IMG/VR virus record: IMGVR_UViG_3300016474_000192
Span: 1-37,692 of that record
Direction: 5' to 3' (one strand)
DNA: 37,692 nucleotides
From: a virus
The notes below the pieces were generated by a model that saw nothing but the letters and a program-made list of their open reading frames with translations, was not told where the DNA came from and made no database searches. The translations under genes were made by a program, and so were the position numbers. Position 1 is the first letter of the stretch; each line of letters starts with the position of its first letter. Shown here piece after piece: positions 4,029 to 37,692 of the stretch.

Positions 4029-4064
4029 CCCCCGGCGTCCTCACCCTTGCGCCGGGGGTTTTTT
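4029..4064. terminator. Bidirectional intrinsic terminator between convergent operons
   Basis: 9-bp GC stem CCCCCGGCG(4029-4037)/CGCCGGGGG(4050-4058), a T6 run downstream and AAAATAAA upstream (a T-run on the other strand). Sits between the primase stop and the stop of the 4070 minus-strand gene. Confidence 0.85.
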
Positions 4065-4069
4065 AGTGT

Positions 4070-4270
4070 CTAGCGAATGCGGGTGATTGTCATTATCCGT
4101 GTGCGCATATCAGTGCGGCAGCGATAGAAGCGGTCATGCCTTGCGCCGTACTGGCTGACGTTGCGGGCGATGCGCTTCACGTCTGCGGCGGTGTCGGCTT
4201 CCATCTGCACTTCTTCGCCGACTTCCATACCGCGCAGCGGATAGGAGACTGGCCTGCCGAATTGGCTCAT
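4070..4270 (-). CDS. Hypothetical protein, 66 aa (last gene of the leftward operon)
   Basis: ATG at 4270 overlaps the upstream stop (ATGA). A G-rich SD (GGGGGTGGCGGA) lies upstream. The ORF is open from 4291. Confidence 0.6.
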   Translation of the reverse strand: MSQFGRPVSYPLRGMEVGEEVQMEADTAADVKRIARNVSQYGARHDRFYRCRTDMRTRIMTITRIR

Positions 4271-4479
4271 TCCGCCACCCCCAGCAGCCATGCGGGCTGC
4301 ACTTGCAGCGTTTCGGCCAGCGCGGCGACGCAGGAAAGCGTAGGGTTGCTACGCTGGCCCTGCGCCAGCCGTTGCAGGTAAGACGCGCTGTAGCCAGACT
4401 TTGCGGCCAATTCTGGCCACGTCATGTTTTGGTTATCAATCGCTGCCCGCAAGCGGTCGCGGAACAATTCAGGCGTCAT
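4267..4479 (-). CDS. XRE/Cro-type helix-turn-helix DNA-binding protein, 70 aa
   Basis: MTPELFRDRLRAAIDNQNMTWPELAAKSGYSASYLQRLAQGQRSNPTLSCVAALAETLQV is a typical HTH_3 pattern. GGAGGA SD lies 5 nt before the ATG at 4479. Confidence 0.8.
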   Translation of the reverse strand: MTPELFRDRLRAAIDNQNMTWPELAAKSGYSASYLQRLAQGQRSNPTLSCVAALAETLQVQPAWLLGVAE

Positions 4480-4645
4480 TGCTTTCCTCCGGGTCCATGC
4501 ACAGCTCAACCTTGAAGCGCTTGCCGCACCACATGAACCAAAACTTGCCGTAGTGGTCCGGTATGAACAGGTGAATATTGTCGGCATCATCCAGCAGACG
4601 GTTGCCCAAATCCAGCGCTAGTTCGTCTTTATCTTTCAGTTCCAT
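4469..4645 (-). CDS. Hypothetical protein, 58 aa (below the ORF-track size cutoff)
   Basis: Hand translation gives MELKDKDELALDLGNRLLDDADNIHLFIPDHYGKFWFMWCGKRFKVELCMDPEESNDA. The stop overlaps the start region of the HTH gene. Confidence 0.5.
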   Translation of the reverse strand: MELKDKDELALDLGNRLLDDADNIHLFIPDHYGKFWFMWCGKRFKVELCMDPEESNDA

Positions 4646-4721
4646 TGTCTAAAACCTTATGTCGTCAGGGTGCCAGTCAATCAGTTCCCAGCCGAAGTTG
4701 TCCCAGAGCCAGTTGCGCAGG

Positions 4722-4904
4722 TCAGTCAGCCACATCGCGGGGTTTCTTTCGCGGGTCGGTAATGCTTATTTCGGTATGAAATCCATTGAAACGCCGCCAC
4801 GTCCATTGGAGCCAAACCAGCGTTTTTGTCCGCCCTTCAGTAAGAACTATAGGGAACAGCGCGAAGCGTTTGCGCCACCCATCGTCACGCCATTTTATTA
4901 TCAT
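4722..4904 (-). CDS. Hypothetical protein, 60 aa
   Basis: MIIKWRDDGWRKRFALFPIVL... AAGGAAG SD lies before the ATG at 4904. Overlaps the stop of the upstream gene. Confidence 0.6.
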   Translation of the reverse strand: MIIKWRDDGWRKRFALFPIVLTEGRTKTLVWLQWTWRRFNGFHTEISITDPRKKPRDVAD

Positions 4905-5334
4905 CGCAGGCTTCCTTGTATTCGCGCAGGGCTTCGTTGAAGCGAAACCACACGCCGTTTCCAGCTTCAACAACAATGTCGTCGTCTTTGCGGCGCGCAG
5001 CAGCCCATTCGGCGCGGCAGATCATGTCTGCTTTCAAGTCTTCTCCGGCTTTTGCCAGCGTCTCGGCCAGCGCCTTGAACTTGGCGAGTTCGGCAGCTTG
5101 CTCGGCGCGGACTGCTTCACGGTCGGCTTGCATAAGCTGGCGCACACTATCCAGATACAGGAAGCCAGCGGAAAACCAGCGGTTAATGTCAGCCTTCATC
5201 TGTTCGCAGACGTTGGGGTCATCAAGCGCGGCAGACAGCCACCCGCCAACGTCAACGCTTGCTTGGACTGCTTCGTGTTCCGCCAACAGAATGCTCTCTT
5301 CCCAGATAGGGGCGAAGTCATCTTCACTGGTCAT
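4885..5334 (-). CDS. Hypothetical protein, 149 aa
   Basis: AGGAGA SD before the ATG at 5334. Protein-like acidic/helical composition. Chained with its neighbours. Confidence 0.75.
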   Translation of the reverse strand: MTSEDDFAPIWEESILLAEHEAVQASVDVGGWLSAALDDPNVCEQMKADINRWFSAGFLYLDSVRQLMQADREAVRAEQAAELAKFKALAETLAKAGEDLKADMICRAEWAAARRKDDDIVVEAGNGVWFRFNEALREYKEACDDNKMA

Positions 5335-5572
5335 GGCTGTCTCCTGCGAGTGCTGCGCGGGCGATGTCGGCCATGCGCTTGGTTAGTTGAAGCAGATACC
5401 CTTCTGGCGCAGTCTCAGGGATGAAGCCTTCGCTGCCTGCCCACTCCTCGAACACTTCACGCAATGCAGCTTCAAGGGTTTCAATGCGGTCGGCGGCTAG
5501 GTCAATATCCTCTGCGATTACAAAGTCCCGCAGCCGCTCCACCAGATCACCGCTGCGGCTTGTGTCCGTCAT
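5324..5572 (-). CDS. Hypothetical protein, 82 aa
   Basis: GGGAGAG SD. TAATG overlap with the upstream gene. Confidence 0.7.
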   Translation of the reverse strand: MTDTSRSGDLVERLRDFVIAEDIDLAADRIETLEAALREVFEEWAGSEGFIPETAPEGYLLQLTKRMADIARAALAGDSHDQ

Positions 5573-5835
5573 TACTTCTCTCCCAGTGCGGCGCGGAATA
5601 GTTTTACAGCGTAGTTAAAGCCTTCATCCCATTCGCTGTCGCGGGCCTCTGCCCAAATACGATTTGGAGTATCTCGCAGCCGCTCGATCTCGCGGGCTTG
5701 GGTTTCGATTAGGTCGGCGGCTTCCTCGCGCTGTTTGTCGATGGCATCGCTGTCCATCATCCAGTGCTTCTCGACCAGTATCTCAGGCCAGTCACCCCGC
5801 AGCCGCTCCACCAGCGCCTTTGCTTCGTCAGTCAT
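5572..5835 (-). CDS. Hypothetical protein, 87 aa
   Basis: ATG at 5835 lies 6 nt after GGGAGGG. The GTG at 5838 is too close to the SD. Overlaps the upstream TGA. Confidence 0.7.
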   Translation of the reverse strand: MTDEAKALVERLRGDWPEILVEKHWMMDSDAIDKQREEAADLIETQAREIERLRDTPNRIWAEARDSEWDEGFNYAVKLFRAALGEK

Positions 5836-6200
5836 CACTCACCCTCCCACACAATGCGACCGCCACGGGCTTCGATGGCTGCGCGTAGGCGTTTGGCGTC
5901 CTCGTCACCGATTACTAGTTCCAGCGTTTCTTCTACCGCCAGAGCAAGTCCCGCAGTCGCTTCGTCGGGCTTGGCGATGATGAAGCGGGAAAGATGCGCT
6001 TCCGTTTCTGGCGTTAGGACACTGCTGTCTATCGCATCGCTAACCTCGCGCTTGAAGGCTTCGTGCTGTTCGATGGCGCGGGCATGGGCAACGATGGAGG
6101 CGCGCAGCGGCAAGTCCAGAGCCATGCGGTCGAAATGATGCACTGCACGTCCGGCGCACTGGCAGGCGTGTTCTAGCGCCTTGGGGTCAATGTCATTCAT
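5835..6200 (-). CDS. Hypothetical protein, 121 aa
   Basis: ATGA overlap with the upstream gene at 6197-6200. Coherent helical protein sequence. Confidence 0.7.
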   Translation of the reverse strand: MNDIDPKALEHACQCAGRAVHHFDRMALDLPLRASIVAHARAIEQHEAFKREVSDAIDSSVLTPETEAHLSRFIIAKPDEATAGLALAVEETLELVIGDEDAKRLRAAIEARGGRIVWEGE

Positions 6201-6400
6201 GCCTGTATCGCCTTTCCATAAACCACCCGGTCCACCCGGCGGCGCTTGTCGTTGCGTAGTTGCTTCTCTGCGATGTCCAGTGCCAGATCGGCGGCTGGGG
6301 CGATGGTGCGGTGATGCGATTGGCGGCGGTAGCCGCTGGCCGTGTAGTATATCAGCAGACAGTTGTAGCGGTGCCGGGGCATATTGCGCAGCCAGTTCAT
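6197..6400 (-). CDS. Hypothetical basic protein, 67 aa
   Basis: MNWLRNMPRHRYN... AAGGAA SD before the ATG at 6400. The longer ORF (to 6694) overlaps better-supported genes in other frames. Confidence 0.55.
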   Translation of the reverse strand: MNWLRNMPRHRYNCLLIYYTASGYRRQSHHRTIAPAADLALDIAEKQLRNDKRRRVDRVVYGKAIQA

Positions 6401-6558
6401 TGTGCGTTCCTTTCCCGTTCGTCTAGCAGGGCCTTTGTCGCGCAGGTGGTGCGCAGGCAGCCGCGCACGTTGTGCGGCGTGATGTGCGTGCCGCAGTGAT
6501 CGCACCAGATCGGCGGACCCTTGGCACGTGGCGGCTTGTGCTTGCGCGTGGTGGTCAT
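6397..6558 (-). CDS. Cys4 zinc-ribbon-like mini-protein, 53 aa (below the ORF-track cutoff)
   Basis: Hand translation gives MTTTRKHKPPRAKGPPIWCDHCGTHITPHNVRGCLRTTCATKALLDERERNAQ, with CxxC-x11-C-x4-C. ATGA overlaps at both ends (6555-6558 and 6397-6400). Confidence 0.5.
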   Translation of the reverse strand: MTTTRKHKPPRAKGPPIWCDHCGTHITPHNVRGCLRTTCATKALLDERERNAQ

Positions 6559-6782
6559 AGCAGCCCCCGCGCCTTGCAGGCTTGCGCCAAATGGTGCGGT
6601 GCCACGCCCCAGACGCGCGCAGCATCCCCATACTGGCGGCAGAGCAGCCGCAGGCGGTCATCGCTGGCACGCATGGCTTGGCGTAGCCGCTCATGCTCTT
6701 GCAGGGCGTCAGCGGCTTCGCGCAGCACGTCCATTTCGGACATGATAGCGACAGGCAGACGCTTTTCGATGGTATCAGGCAT
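6555..6782 (-). CDS. Hypothetical protein, 75 aa (possible C-terminal HTH)
   Basis: MPDTIEKRLPVAIMSEMDVL...AARVWGVAPHHLAQACKARGLL. Chained in the operon. Confidence 0.6.
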   Translation of the reverse strand: MPDTIEKRLPVAIMSEMDVLREAADALQEHERLRQAMRASDDRLRLLCRQYGDAARVWGVAPHHLAQACKARGLL

Positions 6783-7002
6783 TGCGGCGGTATCCTTTCA
6801 TGTAGCGGCCTGTTTTCGGGTCGCGCTGCACGCTGTTGCGGCGCAGGTCGTCATATAGCCTGCACCAGTCGTTCGCGCTGTCGCGCCAATAGTGAATGTC
6901 AGCGCGCAGCAGGGCGGCGCGATAGCTTGCGTCGATCAGTTTCCAGATCAGGACCAGATTGGTCAGCAGTGAGCCAGCTAGTGCAATTGCGGCGGGGTCC
7001 AT
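6775..7002 (-). CDS. Small membrane protein, 75 aa
   Basis: GGAGGA SD before the ATG at 7002. N-terminal hydrophobic helix AAIALAGSLLTNLVLIW. Confidence 0.6.
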   Translation of the reverse strand: MDPAAIALAGSLLTNLVLIWKLIDASYRAALLRADIHYWRDSANDWCRLYDDLRRNSVQRDPKTGRYMKGYRRNA

Positions 7003-7004
7003 AG

Positions 7005-7064
7005 TCAGTCCTCCATCATCAGGGTTATGACGGCCAGCAGGGCCGCGAATAGCAGCGCCATCAT
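7005..7064 (-). CDS. Possible 19-aa hydrophobic micro-ORF
   Basis: MMALLFAALLAVITLMMED. ATGA overlap with the stop of the 7061..7303 gene. Carries the SD of the next gene. Might only be a coupling spacer. Confidence 0.25.
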   Translation of the reverse strand: MMALLFAALLAVITLMMED

Positions 7065-7303
7065 GGCGCTGCGTCTCCCAGTTCATAGGCGTCCAGTTCT
7101 TTGCGCAGATAGTCCACCCGGCGCGACAGTTCGGCAATCTCTGCCTTTGCATCGTGCAAATCGTCAGCCGTATCGGATAGCATTCCTAGTCGTTCGCCTA
7201 GTGCTATCGCCAGTTCGTGCCCGCTATCGCGTGCAGCTTCGATCAGGCGGCGGCTATCTTCGCGGCGCCAGTAAGTGCGGTCTTCGTTCGGGTTGTACAT
7301 CAT
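7061..7303 (-). CDS. Hypothetical coiled-coil protein, 80 aa
   Basis: GGAG SD 8 nt before the ATG at 7303. Helical acidic sequence. Confidence 0.7.
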   Translation of the reverse strand: MMYNPNEDRTYWRREDSRRLIEAARDSGHELAIALGERLGMLSDTADDLHDAKAEIAELSRRVDYLRKELDAYELGDAAP

Positions 7304-7304
7304 G

Positions 7305-7688
7305 TCACCGGCTCCGTTTGATTGCGATTTTATAGGCTTCGATGGCGGCAGGGCACAATCCCACGGCGCTGCGGAATAGAGGCCCGGTATAATCGCTATC
7401 GGCGCGTTCCACGGCGTGCCGCACGCCTAGCAGGTACGCGCGCAGATAGCCGGGGCGGAAATAGAACATATCGCGGACTGGCTTATCAGGGCCAGTCGCG
7501 CCTTCGTGCCATGCAAGTGCGCAGTTGGCCTTGGCGGCGGTCACGGATAGCCCTTGGCGGCGTTCCAGCTTGATAGCTTCGGCCCATGCGCCAGCGTCTG
7601 TCCAGTTGGTCGTTTCGGATAGGTACGCGATAGCGCGCGCAGCGGCGTCGATGGTGGCGCGTTCGGCTTTGGTGAATTCGATGGTCAT
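7305..7688 (-). CDS. Hypothetical protein, 127 aa
   Basis: Conserved leader CACACGGAGCAACTGACA before the ATG at 7688. Confidence 0.75.
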   Translation of the reverse strand: MTIEFTKAERATIDAAARAIAYLSETTNWTDAGAWAEAIKLERRQGLSVTAAKANCALAWHEGATGPDKPVRDMFYFRPGYLRAYLLGVRHAVERADSDYTGPLFRSAVGLCPAAIEAYKIAIKRSR

Positions 7689-7711
7689 TGTCAGTTGCTC
7701 CGTGTGATGTT

Positions 7712-7734
7712 GGGGCGGCAGTCAGCGCCGCCCC
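7712..7734 (-). other. Intercistronic GC hairpin (8-bp stem, 7-nt loop)
   Basis: GGGGCGGC(7712-7719)/GCCGCCCC(7727-7734), between the DnaN-like stop and the next SD. There is no U-run, so it is more likely an mRNA stability or processing element than a terminator. Confidence 0.4.
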
Positions 7735-7748
7735 TAGGTTTAAGGATC

Positions 7749-8345
7749 TTATTCGCCAGTGCCGATCGGCGCGGTGCGCGTGGCCCACACGTCGGTCGGA
7801 TCCTGATATGTCGCCCGGATAGGCATAAGGACCGCAAATGCGTCCTCGCAGGATCCGAAAGTAACGCCCGCCGGGCCTTCGCCGTTATGGTGGATTTGGG
7901 CGGACAGGACAGGTTTACCGCGCCCGAACAGGATCTCGCCAATCTTACCCATGTCGGCCACATATGCAGGATTGAATTGCGCGGTTTCGCCGGTCAATTC
8001 GGTCGGCACTACACGCCGCCAATCGGGAAAAGATCCGTCTATCGACCGACACGCAAGATCCCCAACGTGTGCCGGGCTGATGGCAATCAAATCCGCCTTA
8101 TGGCCGGTCAACGCGCGCTTGATTGCGTCGCGCGGCAGGATCCACCCGTCGAACGGCGGTACGTCGGAAATGTCGATCTTGCCACAAAACAGGCGGTGCC
8201 CATCGGTCGAAACGAGAAACCCCTTGGGATCCACGTAAACGCCGTTCAGATAATACCGCGCTTGTTCGGTAGACGCGCACACAAGCGCGGCCTTCAGCAT
8301 GGCGGTGGGAACGGCAAACGAATTTGGGTGTGCAATAGCGGTCAT
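7749..8345 (-). CDS. Truncated DNA polymerase III beta-clamp (DnaN)-like protein, 198 aa
   Basis: ARYYLNGVYV...STDGHRLF, GSFPDWRRVVP, FNPAYVADM and AFAVLMPIRA line up with E. coli DnaN VRYYLNGMLFE...ATDGHRLA, GRFPDYRRVLP, FNVSYVLDV and AYVVMPMRL. GGAG SD before the ATG at 8345. Confidence 0.8.
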   Translation of the reverse strand: MTAIAHPNSFAVPTAMLKAALVCASTEQARYYLNGVYVDPKGFLVSTDGHRLFCGKIDISDVPPFDGWILPRDAIKRALTGHKADLIAISPAHVGDLACRSIDGSFPDWRRVVPTELTGETAQFNPAYVADMGKIGEILFGRGKPVLSAQIHHNGEGPAGVTFGSCEDAFAVLMPIRATYQDPTDVWATRTAPIGTGE

Positions 8346-8346
8346 A

Positions 8347-8457
8347 TTAGTTGCTCCGGTTAAAAGCGCGCCAGATACGCACGGCGCTGTTTGCGATGGA
8401 AAGGGTCGCGGCGATTGCCGCCGCGACAAATAGCAAAGTGGTTGCAGCTTGCAGCAC
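8347..8457 (-). CDS. Possible 36-aa single-pass membrane peptide (GTG start)
   Basis: (V/M)LQAATTLLFVAAAIAATLSIANSAVRIWRAFNRSN. Fills the gap between two genes. Its 3' end carries the SD of the DnaN-like gene. Confidence 0.35.
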   Translation of the reverse strand: MLQAATTLLFVAAAIAATLSIANSAVRIWRAFNRSN

Positions 8458-8461
8458 GGCG

Positions 8462-8713
8462 TTAATATCTCGCCTTATCGCCAAACACGGCGTTCGGCAT
8501 AAGCGCCTTAAGCGCGGTTTGCAGGTGGGCGTCTTTATAGTCAGGATAGCCGCCGACAAAGTCGTCACCGATCGCGCGGTATGCGCCGGAGCGGTGCAGC
8601 ACCGTCCAAGCGTCGCGCCCGGTCTTTACATCCTCAAAAGTAAAGCCATGGCGGTCCAGAAAGGCCGCGCCCATATCGCGGATGATTGCAAGGTGACTGT
8701 CTGATACTTTCAT
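8462..8713 (-). CDS. Hypothetical protein, 83 aa (first gene of the leftward operon)
   Basis: Leader CACAACGGAGCAACTGAC before the ATG at 8713. MKVSDSHLAIIRDMGAAFLDRHGFTFEDV... Confidence 0.75.
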   Translation of the reverse strand: MKVSDSHLAIIRDMGAAFLDRHGFTFEDVKTGRDAWTVLHRSGAYRAIGDDFVGGYPDYKDAHLQTALKALMPNAVFGDKARY

Positions 8714-8744
8714 GTCAGTTGCTCCGTTGTGTTGTCTGACATTC

Positions 8745-8773
8745 GTTCTAGTGACTTTGTAGGTAAGTGTCAA
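8745..8773 (-). promoter_or_regulatory. Candidate sigma70-type leftward early promoter
   Basis: On the minus strand: TTGACA (8773-8768), a 17-nt spacer, then TAGAAC (8750-8745). Lies about 30 nt upstream of the first leftward gene. The palindrome TGTCTGACA (8733-8741) sits at the predicted start site. Confidence 0.45.
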
Positions 8774-8794
8774 CACAAAAAGTGTTATAAAAGC

Positions 8795-9130
8795 TTTGGG
8801 TCATAGCCTACCCACAAAATACCCAAGAATGACCCAAGAATGACCCAAAAATTAACCCTCAAAAGCCAGAGAAAAAAATGTATGTTAGGAGGCGCTAATG
8901 TAAGGGCTGTTTTTGGGTAGTTTTGGGTGCCTAATTGGGTAGTTTTGTGGGTAGGGGATGACCCAAAGAAAAACGACGGAAATCTGCGCCGGGGCTGGGC
9001 TTTTGGGTCATTTGGGTAGTGTAGTGTTAAAAATTGAAAAGCTATCTTATTATTGAGAATGGTTCGCAATAAGGTTAGTTTACGGAGCGATTGAACTTTT
9101 GGAAATGATGACCCAAAAAACCCACAAAGT
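8795..9130. repeat. Iteron array, 14 or more copies of TTTGGGT(A/C)(G/A) or TTTGTGGGTAG in both orientations (putative ori, or terminase/regulator binding array)
   Basis: Plus-oriented copies at 8795, 8911, 8921, 8933, 8943, 9001 and 9011. Minus-oriented copies at 8808, 8820, 8830, 8841, (8853), 8959, 9109 and 9121. Tandem copies are spaced 10-12 bp apart. An AT-rich patch lies at 9020-9060. Confidence 0.8.
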
Positions 9131-9208
9131 AGTCCCCGCGCTTTCAGCCCACGCGCCCCGCGCAAAACGCCGCCGCGAAAAAAAATTCGCGCCACGCAAA
9201 GAAAAGTG

Positions 9209-9237
9209 TTGCGTTCGGTTTCGGCCTATGTCATACA
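9209..9237 (+). promoter_or_regulatory. Candidate rightward promoter for the hub transcript
   Basis: TTGCGT (9209-9214), a 17-nt spacer ending in TGt (extended -10), then CATACA (9232-9237). The predicted start near 9244 coincides with the 5' arm of the 13-bp helix. The same GTTGCGT -35 occurs at 35416. Confidence 0.3.
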
Positions 9238-9243
9238 GTTTGT

Positions 9244-9560
9244 GTCAAGGCCGCAAGGCTAGAGGCAGCGGGAACACGTTCCAACGACCCCAAGGGGCGG
9301 TAAGACGAAACGGAGATACAGTCTCCTACCAAGCGGGCCAGCGGTTGCGGTCTTGACGCCCAAAACAAAACGGCAATGGGTTCCACCCGCCGCCAGCAAT
9401 ATGTGTTTTGCATGGCCCAAACTGCCCAAGGGGAAATGACCCCGCGCAAAGCTGGCGGCAAATCGTTATTGCGAACGGTTCGCGGCTTGAGGGGGGAGGG
9501 GTAGGGCCTTGGCCGGTGTGTCTGACACGGGCTGGTACCGCAGACAATTTTTTTATTTTT
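9244..9560 (+). ncRNA. Candidate structured non-coding RNA, about 310 nt, of unknown family
   Basis: No credible ORF on either strand. 13-bp helix 9244-9256/9345-9357 (one G-U), 9-bp GC helix 9389-9397/9451-9459, hairpins at 9312-9326 and 9430-9443, and a G-tract at 9489-9506. Ends at terminator T1. Confidence 0.35.
9519..9560 (+). terminator. Intrinsic terminator T1
   Basis: TGTCTG(9519-9524)/CAGACA(9541-9546) plus inner CGG/CCG pairs, followed by TTTTTTTATTTTT (9548-9560). Confidence 0.65.
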
Positions 9561-9638
9561 GAAAAAGTGCTGTCCCATCCCGACACATCAGATGGCTTTT
9601 CGGTATAGGAACAGCATGGCAAGTCCATGTCGGGGGAG

Positions 9639-9681
9639 GCGGCGGCGTATTCGGGGATACGTCGCCGCTTTTTTATTTTTT
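9639..9681 (+). terminator. Intrinsic terminator T2 (strong)
   Basis: 12-bp stem GCGGCGGCGTAT(9639-9650)/ATACGTCGCCGC(9657-9668) with one G-U and the loop TCGGGG, followed by TTTTTTATTTTTT (9669-9681). Confidence 0.85.
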
Positions 9682-9713
9682 GAAATTTGCAAAACCAGAC
9701 CGCATCATTTAAT
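9680..9713 (+). promoter_or_regulatory. Candidate late promoter giving a leaderless or near-leaderless terS mRNA
   Basis: Either TTTGCA(9686-9691)-N16-TTTAAT(9708-9713) or TTGAAA(9680-9685)-N17-CATCAT(9703-9708). The terS ATG (9722) has no SD and lies 8 nt after TTTAAT. Confidence 0.3.
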
Positions 9714-9721
9714 GTAGCAGC

Positions 9722-10225
9722 ATGACCTTCTACTCCCTGCCGTTCACGCCAGAGCGCCCAGAAGCCACTGAGGCGCGTCTGGAAGCGATCTACGAAGCTG
9801 CGCGCTGCGGCCTGAAGGGCGACAGTCTCGCGCTGGCCGCTGGCTTGACCCCGGCGCAGTACCGCCGCCTGCACGAATTCGACCCGCTGGTGGAGATGGC
9901 CGAAATGAAGGGCCGCGCCGACGGGGAACTTACGGCAGCCAAGGCGCTATACGACGCGGCAGCCGCTGGCGACACCAAGGCGGCGCTGGACATCCTGAAG
10001 CATCAGCACGGCTGGGTCGCCAAGCAACAGGTCGAAGTCAGCATCGACCAGCAAATCAGCATTACGGGCGCGCTGGAGAAGGCCCAGCAGCGCGTCATCG
10101 AAGGGCTGTACACCGAAGTACCCAGCCTGACCCATTCAGAGGAACACCATGCAGACGCCGATTTACGACGCCACAGGCGAGATGGAACTGATGGCGCGGC
10201 TGTGGTCGCCCACGATCAAGGATGA
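9722..10225 (+). CDS. terS: Terminase small subunit (putative)
   Basis: First gene of the late operon, directly upstream of terL. HTH-like segment GLKGDSLALAAGLTPAQYRRL. The 3' end overlaps terL by 77 nt. Confidence 0.65.
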   Translation: MTFYSLPFTPERPEATEARLEAIYEAARCGLKGDSLALAAGLTPAQYRRLHEFDPLVEMAEMKGRADGELTAAKALYDAAAAGDTKAALDILKHQHGWVAKQQVEVSIDQQISITGALEKAQQRVIEGLYTEVPSLTHSEEHHADADLRRHRRDGTDGAAVVAHDQG

Positions 10226-19625: not shown

Positions 19626-20834
19626 ATGTCGAATTCAATTCTTACGATTGACATGATTACTCGCAAGGCTCTTGAAATCCTTGAGAATAATCTTGTCCTG
19701 ACCCGCAACGTGAACCGCCAGTACGACGACAGCTTTGCTGTTGAAGGCGCCAAGATCGGTTCGACCCTGCGTATCCGCCTTCCCGACCGCGCTCTCGTCA
19801 CCGACGGCGCTGCCCTTCAGGTGCAGGATGACAACGAGCAGTTCACGACCCTGACCGTTGCCAGCCAGAAGCACATTGGCGTTAACTTCACCACTGCTGA
19901 AATGACCATGCAGTTGGATGACTTTGCTGACCGCGTTCTCAAGCCGCGTATTTCGCAGCTTGCCGCCAGCATCGACGCTGACGTTGCCAACGCGTTCAAG
20001 ACCGTCGGCAACTCGGTCGGCACCCCCGGCACCACGCCGTCCACTTCGCTGGTTCTGCTTCAGGCCCAGCAGAAGCTGAACGAAAACGCTGCTGTGATGT
20101 CGCCGCGCTACGCAACCGTTAACCCGGCTGCTAACGCTGGTCTGGTCGAAGGCATGAAGGGCCTGTTCAACCCGACCGACACTGTCAGCCGCCAGTTCAA
20201 GAACGGCATGATGGGTACGGGCGTACTTGGTTTCGACGAAATCAATATGTCGCAGTCCATCAAGCAGTTCACCACTGGTTCGCGTTCGGCTACCGGCGGC
20301 ACCACCTCGGCTGCTATCACGTCGGAAGGCGCCACCACCATTTCGATCACTGGCGCTGGCAACGGTGCTACGGTCAAGGCTGGCGACGTGTTCACTGTGG
20401 CTGACTGCTACGCCGTCAACCCGCAGACCCGCGAAACCACCGGCTCGCTGTTCCAGTTCGTTGCTCTGGCGGACGTGACCCTGAACGGTTCGGGCGCTGG
20501 CGACATCACGGTTGCCCCGATCTATTCGGCTGGCCGCGCTCTTGCCACCGTCAACACCCTGCCGGGTAACAGCAAGGCTGTCGTGTTTACGGGTGCCGCC
20601 AGCACTCCGTACGCGCAGAACCTTGTCTACCACAAGGACGCCATCACCTTCGCAACCGCCGACCTTCTGCTGCCGCAGGGTGTCGATATGGCGTCGCGTC
20701 AGGTGCACAACGGCATCTCGCTCCGCGTTGTCCGTCAGTACGACATCAACAACGACCGCCTGCCCTGCCGTATCGACGTTCTGTACGGCTACAGCACCAT
20801 TCGTCCGCAGATGGCCTGCCGCGTCTGGGGTTAA
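19626..20834 (+). CDS. Major capsid protein, P22 coat (gp5)-like
   Basis: 402 aa. The C-terminal VYHKDAITFATADLLLPQGVDMA...LPCRIDVLYGY parallels P22 gp5 VFWADDAIRIVSQPIP...LCRIALWYGV. Followed by a hairpin terminator. Confidence 0.9.
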   Translation: MSNSILTIDMITRKALEILENNLVLTRNVNRQYDDSFAVEGAKIGSTLRIRLPDRALVTDGAALQVQDDNEQFTTLTVASQKHIGVNFTTAEMTMQLDDFADRVLKPRISQLAASIDADVANAFKTVGNSVGTPGTTPSTSLVLLQAQQKLNENAAVMSPRYATVNPAANAGLVEGMKGLFNPTDTVSRQFKNGMMGTGVLGFDEINMSQSIKQFTTGSRSATGGTTSAAITSEGATTISITGAGNGATVKAGDVFTVADCYAVNPQTRETTGSLFQFVALADVTLNGSGAGDITVAPIYSAGRALATVNTLPGNSKAVVFTGAASTPYAQNLVYHKDAITFATADLLLPQGVDMASRQVHNGISLRVVRQYDINNDRLPCRIDVLYGYSTIRPQMACRVWG

Positions 20835-20842
20835 TCAGACAA

Positions 20843-20875
20843 CGGCCCCCGGTTCGCCGGGGGCCGTATTCTTTG
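20843..20875 (+). terminator. Post-capsid intrinsic terminator or attenuator
   Basis: 10-bp stem CGGCCCCCGG/CCGGGGGCCG with a TTCG loop, then TATTCTTTGT. Confidence 0.6.
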
Positions 20876-37348: not shown

Positions 37349-37692
37349 GTGGCTATCTTATATTGTGATTTCGAGACCCGCAGCCGTTGCGACCTGAAGG
37401 CGCACGGCGTTTACAATTACGCGCAAGACTTAAGCACCGAAGTGCTGTGTATGTCTTACGCCTTCGACGACGAAGACGTGCGGACGTGGCTGCCCGGTCA
37501 GCCTTTCCCGCCAGCCGTCAAGAACCATCGCGGCCAGATACGCGCGCACAACGCGGCGTTCGAACGCCTGATTTTCTGGTACGTCCTGCAAGTCAACTTC
37601 GACCTTGAACAGTTCTACTGCACCGCAGCACAGGCCCGCGCCAACTGCGCGCCGGGCAGTCTGGAAGACGTGGGGCGGTTCGCTGGGGCGTC
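37349..37692 (+). CDS. DNA polymerase family A, N-terminal 3'-5' exonuclease part (continues at position 23)
   Basis: GTG at 37349 lies 5 nt after GAGG, and an in-frame stop lies at 37334. ExoI ILYCDFETRS and ExoII AHNAAFERLIF. Confidence 0.9.
   Translation, partial: MAILYCDFETRSRCDLKAHGVYNYAQDLSTEVLCMSYAFDDEDVRTWLPGQPFPPAVKNHRGQIRAHNAAFERLIFWYVLQVNFDLEQFYCTAAQARANCAPGSLEDVGRFAGA
37671..37692. repeat. Second copy of the 22-bp closure overlap
   Basis: Identical to positions 1-22. Confidence 0.9.

Follow-up and report, generated by a model that had tools for sequence, protein, structure and literature searches.

In phage lambda, a short non-coding transcript, the 6S RNA, is made from pR' and ends at a strong terminator, tR', directly before the late genes. 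Lambda also makes a leaderless mRNA, that of cI transcribed from PRM. Outside phages, mitochondrial CSB II is a primer-forming terminator in which a G-run is followed by a T-run. Under the spacing rules that relate the hairpin to the 3' end for E. coli RNA polymerase, a hairpin that lies 6 nt back from the U-run does not have the geometry of a canonical terminator. A further system is that of phage HK022, whose put RNAs, about 70 nt long and folded into two stem-loops, are present as a related pair downstream of PL and PR and make the polymerase resistant to termination through its β' zinc-binding domain (PMC9378689).

The locus described here belongs to a podovirus genome recovered from a metagenome; the window, i.e., the whole stretch of DNA analysed (37,692 bp), is the complete virus record. 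Scans of its ORFs identified genes for a primase and a family A DNA polymerase on the + strand. Small genes in a leftward block (4070-8776) are separated by a 940-bp gene-free region from terS, which is followed on the + strand by terL, a P22-like portal gene, and structural and lysis genes. Neither a phage RNA polymerase nor a sigma factor was detected among the ORFs scanned (a subset of the total), so transcription should depend on the host polymerase; the same ORFs yielded no Q/N-like protein, in agreement with an initial annotation of the locus, whose positions and sequence strings all proved correct when checked against the window. No tRNA or tmRNA genes were found in the window, and Rfam searches returned nothing relevant at gathering or permissive thresholds, either in the window or in the loci of eight relatives. 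The nearest deposited relatives are the uncultured freshwater phages MW202483 and DSL-LC05; additionally, more than 595 terS relatives are present in a viral contig collection, and 80 loci were fetched via terS. A physical genome end at the record termini was considered and rejected: the 22-bp direct terminal repeat (1-22 and 37671-37692) lies inside the DNA polymerase gene and is the overlap of a circular assembly. A coding reading of 9099-9717 was likewise discarded, as the tblastn matches in relatives are frame-broken echoes of nucleotide conservation.

Two other features of the genome deserve mention. Dense repeats of ATGACCCAAA / TTTGGGT(A/C) occupy 8795-9130 in both orientations; at one mismatch or fewer, 16 matches occur genome-wide, 8 of them in 8795-9130, against 6.1 expected. 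An analogous array, of TGACCCACTGGGT, is found at the same place in DSL-LC05, and the window array likely represents an origin or an operator array. Further upstream, a hairpin followed by TTTTT (4043-4059, +), likely a terminator, is found where the primase gene and the leftward operon converge.

In the stretch 9484-9721, a short rightward non-coding unit probably comes to its end, and a late promoter that is independent of it follows; a probability of roughly 60% can be given to this reading. Host RNA polymerase would start near 9246, at a candidate promoter, and transcribe a non-coding region together with the conserved T1 block, which, judging from its folding and spacing, would provide a weak termination or pause signal. 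Transcripts that continue would carry an accessory RNA module of about 110 nt (9571-9668), and a hairpin and U-tract would then act as a strong intrinsic terminator, T2. By ending the upstream RNA, T2 would shield the adjoining downstream promoter from incoming polymerases, and that promoter, TTGCAA-17-TAATGT, would initiate late transcription at the A of the terS ATG, so that the mRNA of the late operon would be leaderless.

The late promoter (9687-9715, +) comprises a -35 element, TTGCAA (9687-9692), a 17-nt spacer and a -10 element, TAATGT (9710-9715). The T2 tail and the terS ATG are 40 nt apart, as the initial annotation had it, and the -10 ends 6 nt before the ATG. The pattern TTGnnn-17-TAnnnT, ending 6-8 nt before the terS ATG, was found in 66 of 68 distinct relatives, against a rate of 0.3% in shuffled sequences, a count that overstates independence because these relatives are phylogenetically related. 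Their promoters comprise 23 different hexamer combinations, always with a spacer of 17 nt. In the window, the two hexamers match the consensus at only 7 of 12 positions, and the promoter reported by the scan was an alternative one, TTGAAA-17-CATCAT. With a conserved promoter just downstream of T2, no read-through mechanism is needed for late gene expression. The comparison thus favours one of the two readings offered by the initial annotation, namely that the upstream RNA is insulated from a separate late promoter, which is of the sigma-70 type and has a fixed geometry between T2 and terS. The other reading, in which rightward transcription must pass two terminators, lacks support in the relatives, where the tandem arrangement is not conserved and where most loci lack both the spacer and T2. 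The same annotation regarded this stretch as the decision point for late gene expression, which is plausible in location only.

The position of the promoter also bears on how terS (9722-10225, +; 167 aa) is translated. Because an in-frame TAA (9710-9712) lies inside the -10 element, 9722 is the first possible start of the gene. No Shine-Dalgarno-like motif is present upstream of terS, although most other genes have one, and this, together with the position of the -10 before the ATG, suggests that the terS mRNA is probably leaderless, starting at the A of the ATG at 9722 or 1 nt before it. In relatives, the 17-nt spacer of the late promoter usually contains an inverted repeat of varying sequence, such as TTGCAA-N6-TTGCAA, CTGCGCGCAG, CTGCACC...GGTGCAG or TGCACG...CGTGCG (L009, L054, L008, L007 and L004 are examples), which could serve as an operator or, in read-through transcripts, as a hairpin masking the AUG. 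Within the late operon, the sole strong internal hairpin (20842-20867, +; 11 bp, 10 of them GC, with a poor U-tract) lies just 3' of a 402-aa ORF (19626-20834), a putative capsid gene outside the set of ORFs scanned.

T2 (9639-9681, +) has a GC-rich stem of 13 Watson-Crick pairs (9639-9651/9656-9668), or 19 pairs if G.U pairs are included (9633-9674), followed directly by the U-tract TTTTTTATTTTTT, i.e., UUUUUUAUUUUUU (9669-9681), which leaves 5 nt to the -35 element of the late promoter. Its folding energy is -27.9 kcal/mol (z = -5.5), none of 200 shuffled sequences folds as well, and a terminator scan ranked it as the strongest terminator-like site in the genome. By its hairpin and U-tract, T2 is a canonical intrinsic terminator, at which transcription is predicted to end. 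The hairpin is present in all 20 variants of the locus that were compared: the stems differ but always pair (-24 to -36 kcal/mol), and G.U pairs, which fit only + strand RNA, make up 81 of the 368 pairs. These values come from folds of the individual sequences, since MAFFT offsets the 3' arm and makes alifold uninformative there. Besides the window, only L019, L101, L135, L172 and L219 have a U-tract after the hairpin; in the remaining relatives with the module the hairpin abuts the -35 element. Since most module-bearing relatives have no U-tract, insulation cannot be the conserved role of the module.

At the other end of the proposed unit, the candidate rightward promoter (9209-9239, +) consists of TTGCGT (9209-9214), a 19-nt spacer and TACAGT (9234-9239), is preceded by an A-tract and has a predicted start near 9246-9247. 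Two relatives that are otherwise divergent, L284 and L044, retain the motif AAAAAAGTGTTGCAATC.GTTT...CATAC.GT; in L284, a small ORF that has a Shine-Dalgarno sequence follows it. The promoter assignment is tentative because the 19-nt spacer is unusual. This promoter could be the source of the transcripts that reach T1, the module and T2.

Between the two promoters, the T1 block (9484-9547, +) comprises a G-run (9491-9506), an invariant GGGCC (9504-9508), a conserved hairpin (9511-9533) and CGCAGACAA (9539-9547), all on the + strand. The 78 nt that end in the T-run form the best-conserved non-coding stretch among the relatives, GGGCC and CGCA(A/G)ACAATTTTT being the invariant parts. The initial annotation had described two tandem intrinsic terminators; T2 stands, and T1 as drawn is weak. 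The T1 stem that it drew (TGTCTG/CAGACA, 9519-9524/9541-9546, +) reaches only -10.2 kcal/mol over 9519-9546 even with three inner pairs, and at equilibrium it is occupied at about 12%, against 86% for the competing hairpin at 9511-9533, which is part of a -20 kcal/mol fold of the whole block. That fold ends 6 nt before the U-run. Folding of 9510-9562 is no better than that of shuffled sequences (z = -0.83), and the terminator scan of the window did not report T1. Across 34 relatives the stem is 67% paired: the four outer pairs are kept, the central pairs hold in only 9 and 6 sequences (they are unpaired in 25 and 28), and no covariation is present in the stem. RNAalifold found no consensus structure for the T1 block of the relatives (consensus energy, -0.04 kcal/mol). 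For the inner hairpin, pairing reaches 75.7%, covariation is weak or marginal, and U.G pairs, which fit + strand RNA, are frequent. When folded one by one, the sequences form a large stem-loop (-8 to -22 kcal/mol) whose last bases are ...CGC, so that AAACAA separates it from the U-run; when folds were constrained to place the hairpin end at the U-run, artificial single closing pairs were all that resulted, and this option was dropped. Given the 6 nt between hairpin and U-run, the T1 block would be at best a pause-type signal or a weak, leaky stop. Such leakiness matters for the module: no consistent promoter lies directly upstream of it in the window or in most variants, so its transcription would need T1 to be leaky, which this reading assumes.

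Conservation of the T1 block in its sequence, and not in a hairpin, also speaks for a role at the level of DNA, in replication priming or packaging, which is a live alternative, if an improbable one. In one version, the block and its T-run would act mainly as a primer-forming site, at which a G-rich nascent RNA hybrid or quadruplex ends transcription in the T-run and primes leading-strand synthesis beside the iteron array; in another, the block would be a pac/cos-like terminase recognition site just upstream of terS. In line with these proposals, the block lies 350-400 nt from the array and immediately precedes terS, the genome has genes for both a primase and a family A DNA polymerase, and the succession of G-run and T-run resembles CSB II. 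However, the G-run is replaced by a C-run or GC hairpin in L078, L128, L005 and L003, the contig ends of the relatives are not piled up at one base, the U.G pairs of the inner hairpin fit + strand RNA, and nothing links the block to TerS or to the polymerase. A C-run or a C-run/G-run hairpin takes the place of the G-run also in L050 and L055, and its replacement in these few relatives argues against a strict requirement for a G-quadruplex. A physical genome end at the T1 block was considered separately and rejected, given that the starts of the relatives' contigs are scattered over the variable region.

Returning to the preferred reading, in which a non-coding unit ends before an independent promoter, the spacer between the T1 block and T2 holds a structured RNA module (9571-9638, +; 63 bits and E = 2e-15 with covariance model R1). 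It consists of a closing helix, H2 (CCCGAC 9579-9584 / GUCGGG 9629-9634), and two hairpins, H4 (GCUUU 9595-9599 / GGAAC 9608-9612) and H3 (AUGG 9616-9619 / CCAU 9625-9628), all on the + strand. A nested model with the corresponding elements (a CCCGAC/GUCG(A)GG closing helix, a GCUUU/GGAGC hairpin and a CAUGG.../...CCAUG hairpin) is 97.7% paired in 17 variants, with four pairs changed on both sides, and none of 500 shuffles scores as high. Together with the terminal hairpin, the module (9571-9668) forms a three-way junction plus a long GC hairpin of about 110 nt in all. In most relatives H3 carries a 14-nt nested extension with compensatory changes, which the window and L019 lack. The unpaired sequences of the module are invariant, as are its 5' 15 nt. 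Two divergent copies, in L121 and L130, have dropped or replaced the third hairpin and keep the 5' strand, the GGCUUU...GUAUA segment, GUCGGGGG and the terminal hairpin. A pairing of the H3 loop (CUCCAG) with CUGGAG before the G-run was examined by eye and discarded, as it shows no covariation.

The initial annotation had seen in this spacer two interleaved helices with the topology of a pseudoknot, helix A (TGCTGT 9568-9573 / ACAGCA 9611-9616) and helix B (CCCGACA 9579-9585 / TGTCGGG 9628-9634), and had treated CATGG/CCATG as a mutually exclusive alternative to them. Both interleaved helices are present in the window, and an interleaved pair of perfect helices of that length (at least 6 and at least 7 bp) arises in 0.6% of dinucleotide shuffles of the spacer, the overall folding energy of which is ordinary (z = +0.2). 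Helix B does not vary, and its pairing is 85.6% as drawn, or 98% if one A is allowed to bulge. Helix A lacks such conservation: it is 69.6% paired across 17 relatives, and its central pairs hold in 4 and 6 of the 17. CATGG/CCATG, far from being a mere alternative, is the best-supported helix and shows covariation. Pattern and covariance model searches placed all true copies of the module, about 21 variants, upstream of terS in this lineage; the exact-pattern scans returned mostly chance matches. The module is single-copy in the window (model R1) and occurs in about 6 of the 80 fetched relatives (L002, L004, L007, L011, L019 and L030). It has no Rfam match at gathering or permissive E-values, and matches no known riboswitch aptamer class in Rfam, in the window or in the loci of five relatives. 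Inspection by eye revealed no module segment that is complementary to either arm of the T2 stem and could compete with it, and the free variation of that stem next to an invariant module argues against a riboswitch expression platform. By comparison across its variants, the module is an uncatalogued structured RNA with invariant loops.

A conserved structured RNA directly before a strong terminator and downstream of a candidate promoter raises the prospect of put-like processive antitermination, in which the module would act in cis on the polymerase that transcribes it, so that T2 and later signals are read through and transcription from the upstream promoter supplements or replaces that from 9687-9715. 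The invariant unpaired sequences are what would be expected of a surface that binds a protein or the polymerase, no protein antiterminator was found among the ORFs scanned, and the hairpin after the putative capsid gene (20842-20867) would be an internal signal to pass. This reading is nevertheless very unlikely. More than 90% of the relatives do without the module yet have the same late operon and promoter, and most of those that carry it have no U-tract to read through. In addition, the module is a single-copy three-way junction and not a pair of stem-loops, and helix A of the proposed pseudoknot is not conserved. When model R1 was run with filters off on HK022 22,000-40,751, a range in which put was placed by gene order, the best match reached 7.1 bits (E = 2.3).

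The patchy distribution of the module, bounded by cassette tails, points in another direction, that of an independent gene for a trans-acting small RNA (an RNA "moron") made up of the module and T2 and expressed from its own weak promoter in the T-rich tail. T2 would then be the terminator of the small RNA, whose U-rich 3' end would suit a chaperone such as Hfq and whose C-rich 5' end (UGUCCCAUCCCGACA) would base-pair with mRNAs of the host or the phage. The invariance of the first 15 nt is consistent with this proposal, as are the sibling cassettes that occupy the site in other relatives and also end in a hairpin and T-run; in L092 and L200, moreover, a good promoter, TTGCAA-16-TAAAAT, lies 7 nt before ACUGUCCC. 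Against it stand the lack of a consistent -35/-10 pair upstream of the module in the window or most variants, the missing U-rich 3' tail of most variants and the fact that no target was identified. A small RNA gene of this kind is thus conceivable but unlikely.

The near-identity of the T1 and T2 tails, which the initial annotation had pointed out, holds: the first copy (9548-9570, +; TTTTTTTATTTTTGAAAAAGTGC) is a direct repeat of 9669-9690, and the two form a 22-nt repeat with 82% identity, 120 nt apart. The tail motif occurs nowhere else in the genome, and as many matches were obtained in 1 of 100 shuffles. In relatives, the conserved T-run lies between 47 and 464 nt from the terS ATG. The simplest of them have a T-run that leads straight into the -35 element; in others, a short hairpin is followed by another copy of the tail, or the interval between the T1 block and terS contains structured non-coding inserts that end in the same kind of tail, or homing-endonuclease (HNH) or small genes. 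The near-identical tails are therefore best explained as shared boundaries of interchangeable cassettes, the module of the window being flanked by two such copies. The inserted protein genes of five relatives (L006, L017, L064, L070 and L326) have their own promoter, TTGnnn-16/17-TAnnnT, 6-7 nt before the start codon, so that genes after the T1 block seem to be independent of upstream transcription and of read-through at T1. Leaderless starts thus seem to be a habit of the T1 block-terS locus in this lineage. The T-run was also considered as an UP element of the late promoter, and a general role of this kind was rejected: only 13 distinct relatives have it next to the -35, and in others it is 25 nt or more upstream.

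The non-coding inserts are varied. One example is L072: some 290 to 50 nt ahead of its terS lies a structured insert of about 200 nt that is closed by a long helix, GAGAAGATAGG/CCTATCTTCTC, has CAAACAATTTTTATTTTTTTTT at its end and is not matched by any Rfam family. Further distinct inserts are present in L020/L036/L055, in L074, in L171 and in L283.

One more speculative proposal concerns the module and the T1 block together. The T2 loop (UUCGGGG/A) is invariant and, according to RNAalifold, complementary to the 5' strand of the module, UCCCGA (9578-9583). This strand could pair with GUCGGG or with UCGGGG in the T2 loop, giving a switch or a long-range pseudoknot; as both partners are invariant, covariation cannot decide between the two pairings. 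It would be a long shot to take 9571-9668 as a new class of cis-acting RNA that reprograms host RNA polymerase or its own transcript and, separately, the G-run/T-run block as a replication-primer-forming terminator. If this were true, the UCCCGA switch would decide whether upstream transcripts stop at T2 or enter the late operon, and a universally conserved G-run/T-run block would be a primer-forming terminator beside an iteron origin.

Set against the known systems, the locus that is read here as a terminated non-coding unit before an independent promoter is closest in outline to an insulator terminator placed upstream of a promoter, as the GC-rich hairpin and U-tract of T2 lie just before the -35 element. 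It differs in that the T2 hairpin is also the conserved 3' stem of an RNA module, mostly without a U-tract in relatives, and in that T1 would be at best a weak or pause-type signal. With the pR'-6S RNA-tR' arrangement of lambda it shares a non-coding transcript that would end at a strong terminator before the late genes. In contrast to lambda, no Q-like protein was detected among the ORFs scanned, and a separate conserved promoter follows the terminator; because of this promoter, read-through is not required, unlike in lambda late control. The likeness to HK022 put lies in a structured nascent RNA of similar size, in its position between promoter and terminator and in the absence of a recognisable protein antiterminator from the scanned ORFs. 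The module differs from put in being single-copy, in its fold, where a closing helix encloses two hairpins and a long hairpin stands apart, and in being absent from most relatives of the phage. Collectively, the comparative evidence points to familiar parts, i.e., one good terminator and a host-type promoter, rather than to an RNA gate for the late genes.

The site between the T1 block and terS also invites comparison with phage morons, since it holds varied inserts that end in T-rich tails, among them protein genes with their own promoters. In this case, however, several of the inserts, including the module of the window, are structured non-coding RNAs that lack a clear promoter, and the site appears to be one at which non-coding RNA cassettes and homing-endonuclease genes are swapped. 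Lastly, terS resembles lambda cI transcribed from PRM in that the -10 element ends 6-7 nt before the ATG, no Shine-Dalgarno sequence is present and the predicted transcription start falls at the start codon. It differs from cI in being the first gene of a structural operon of about 23 kb and in that the arrangement is conserved across a large uncultured lineage; in this large and abundant group of phages, the first gene of the structural operon is apparently leaderless.
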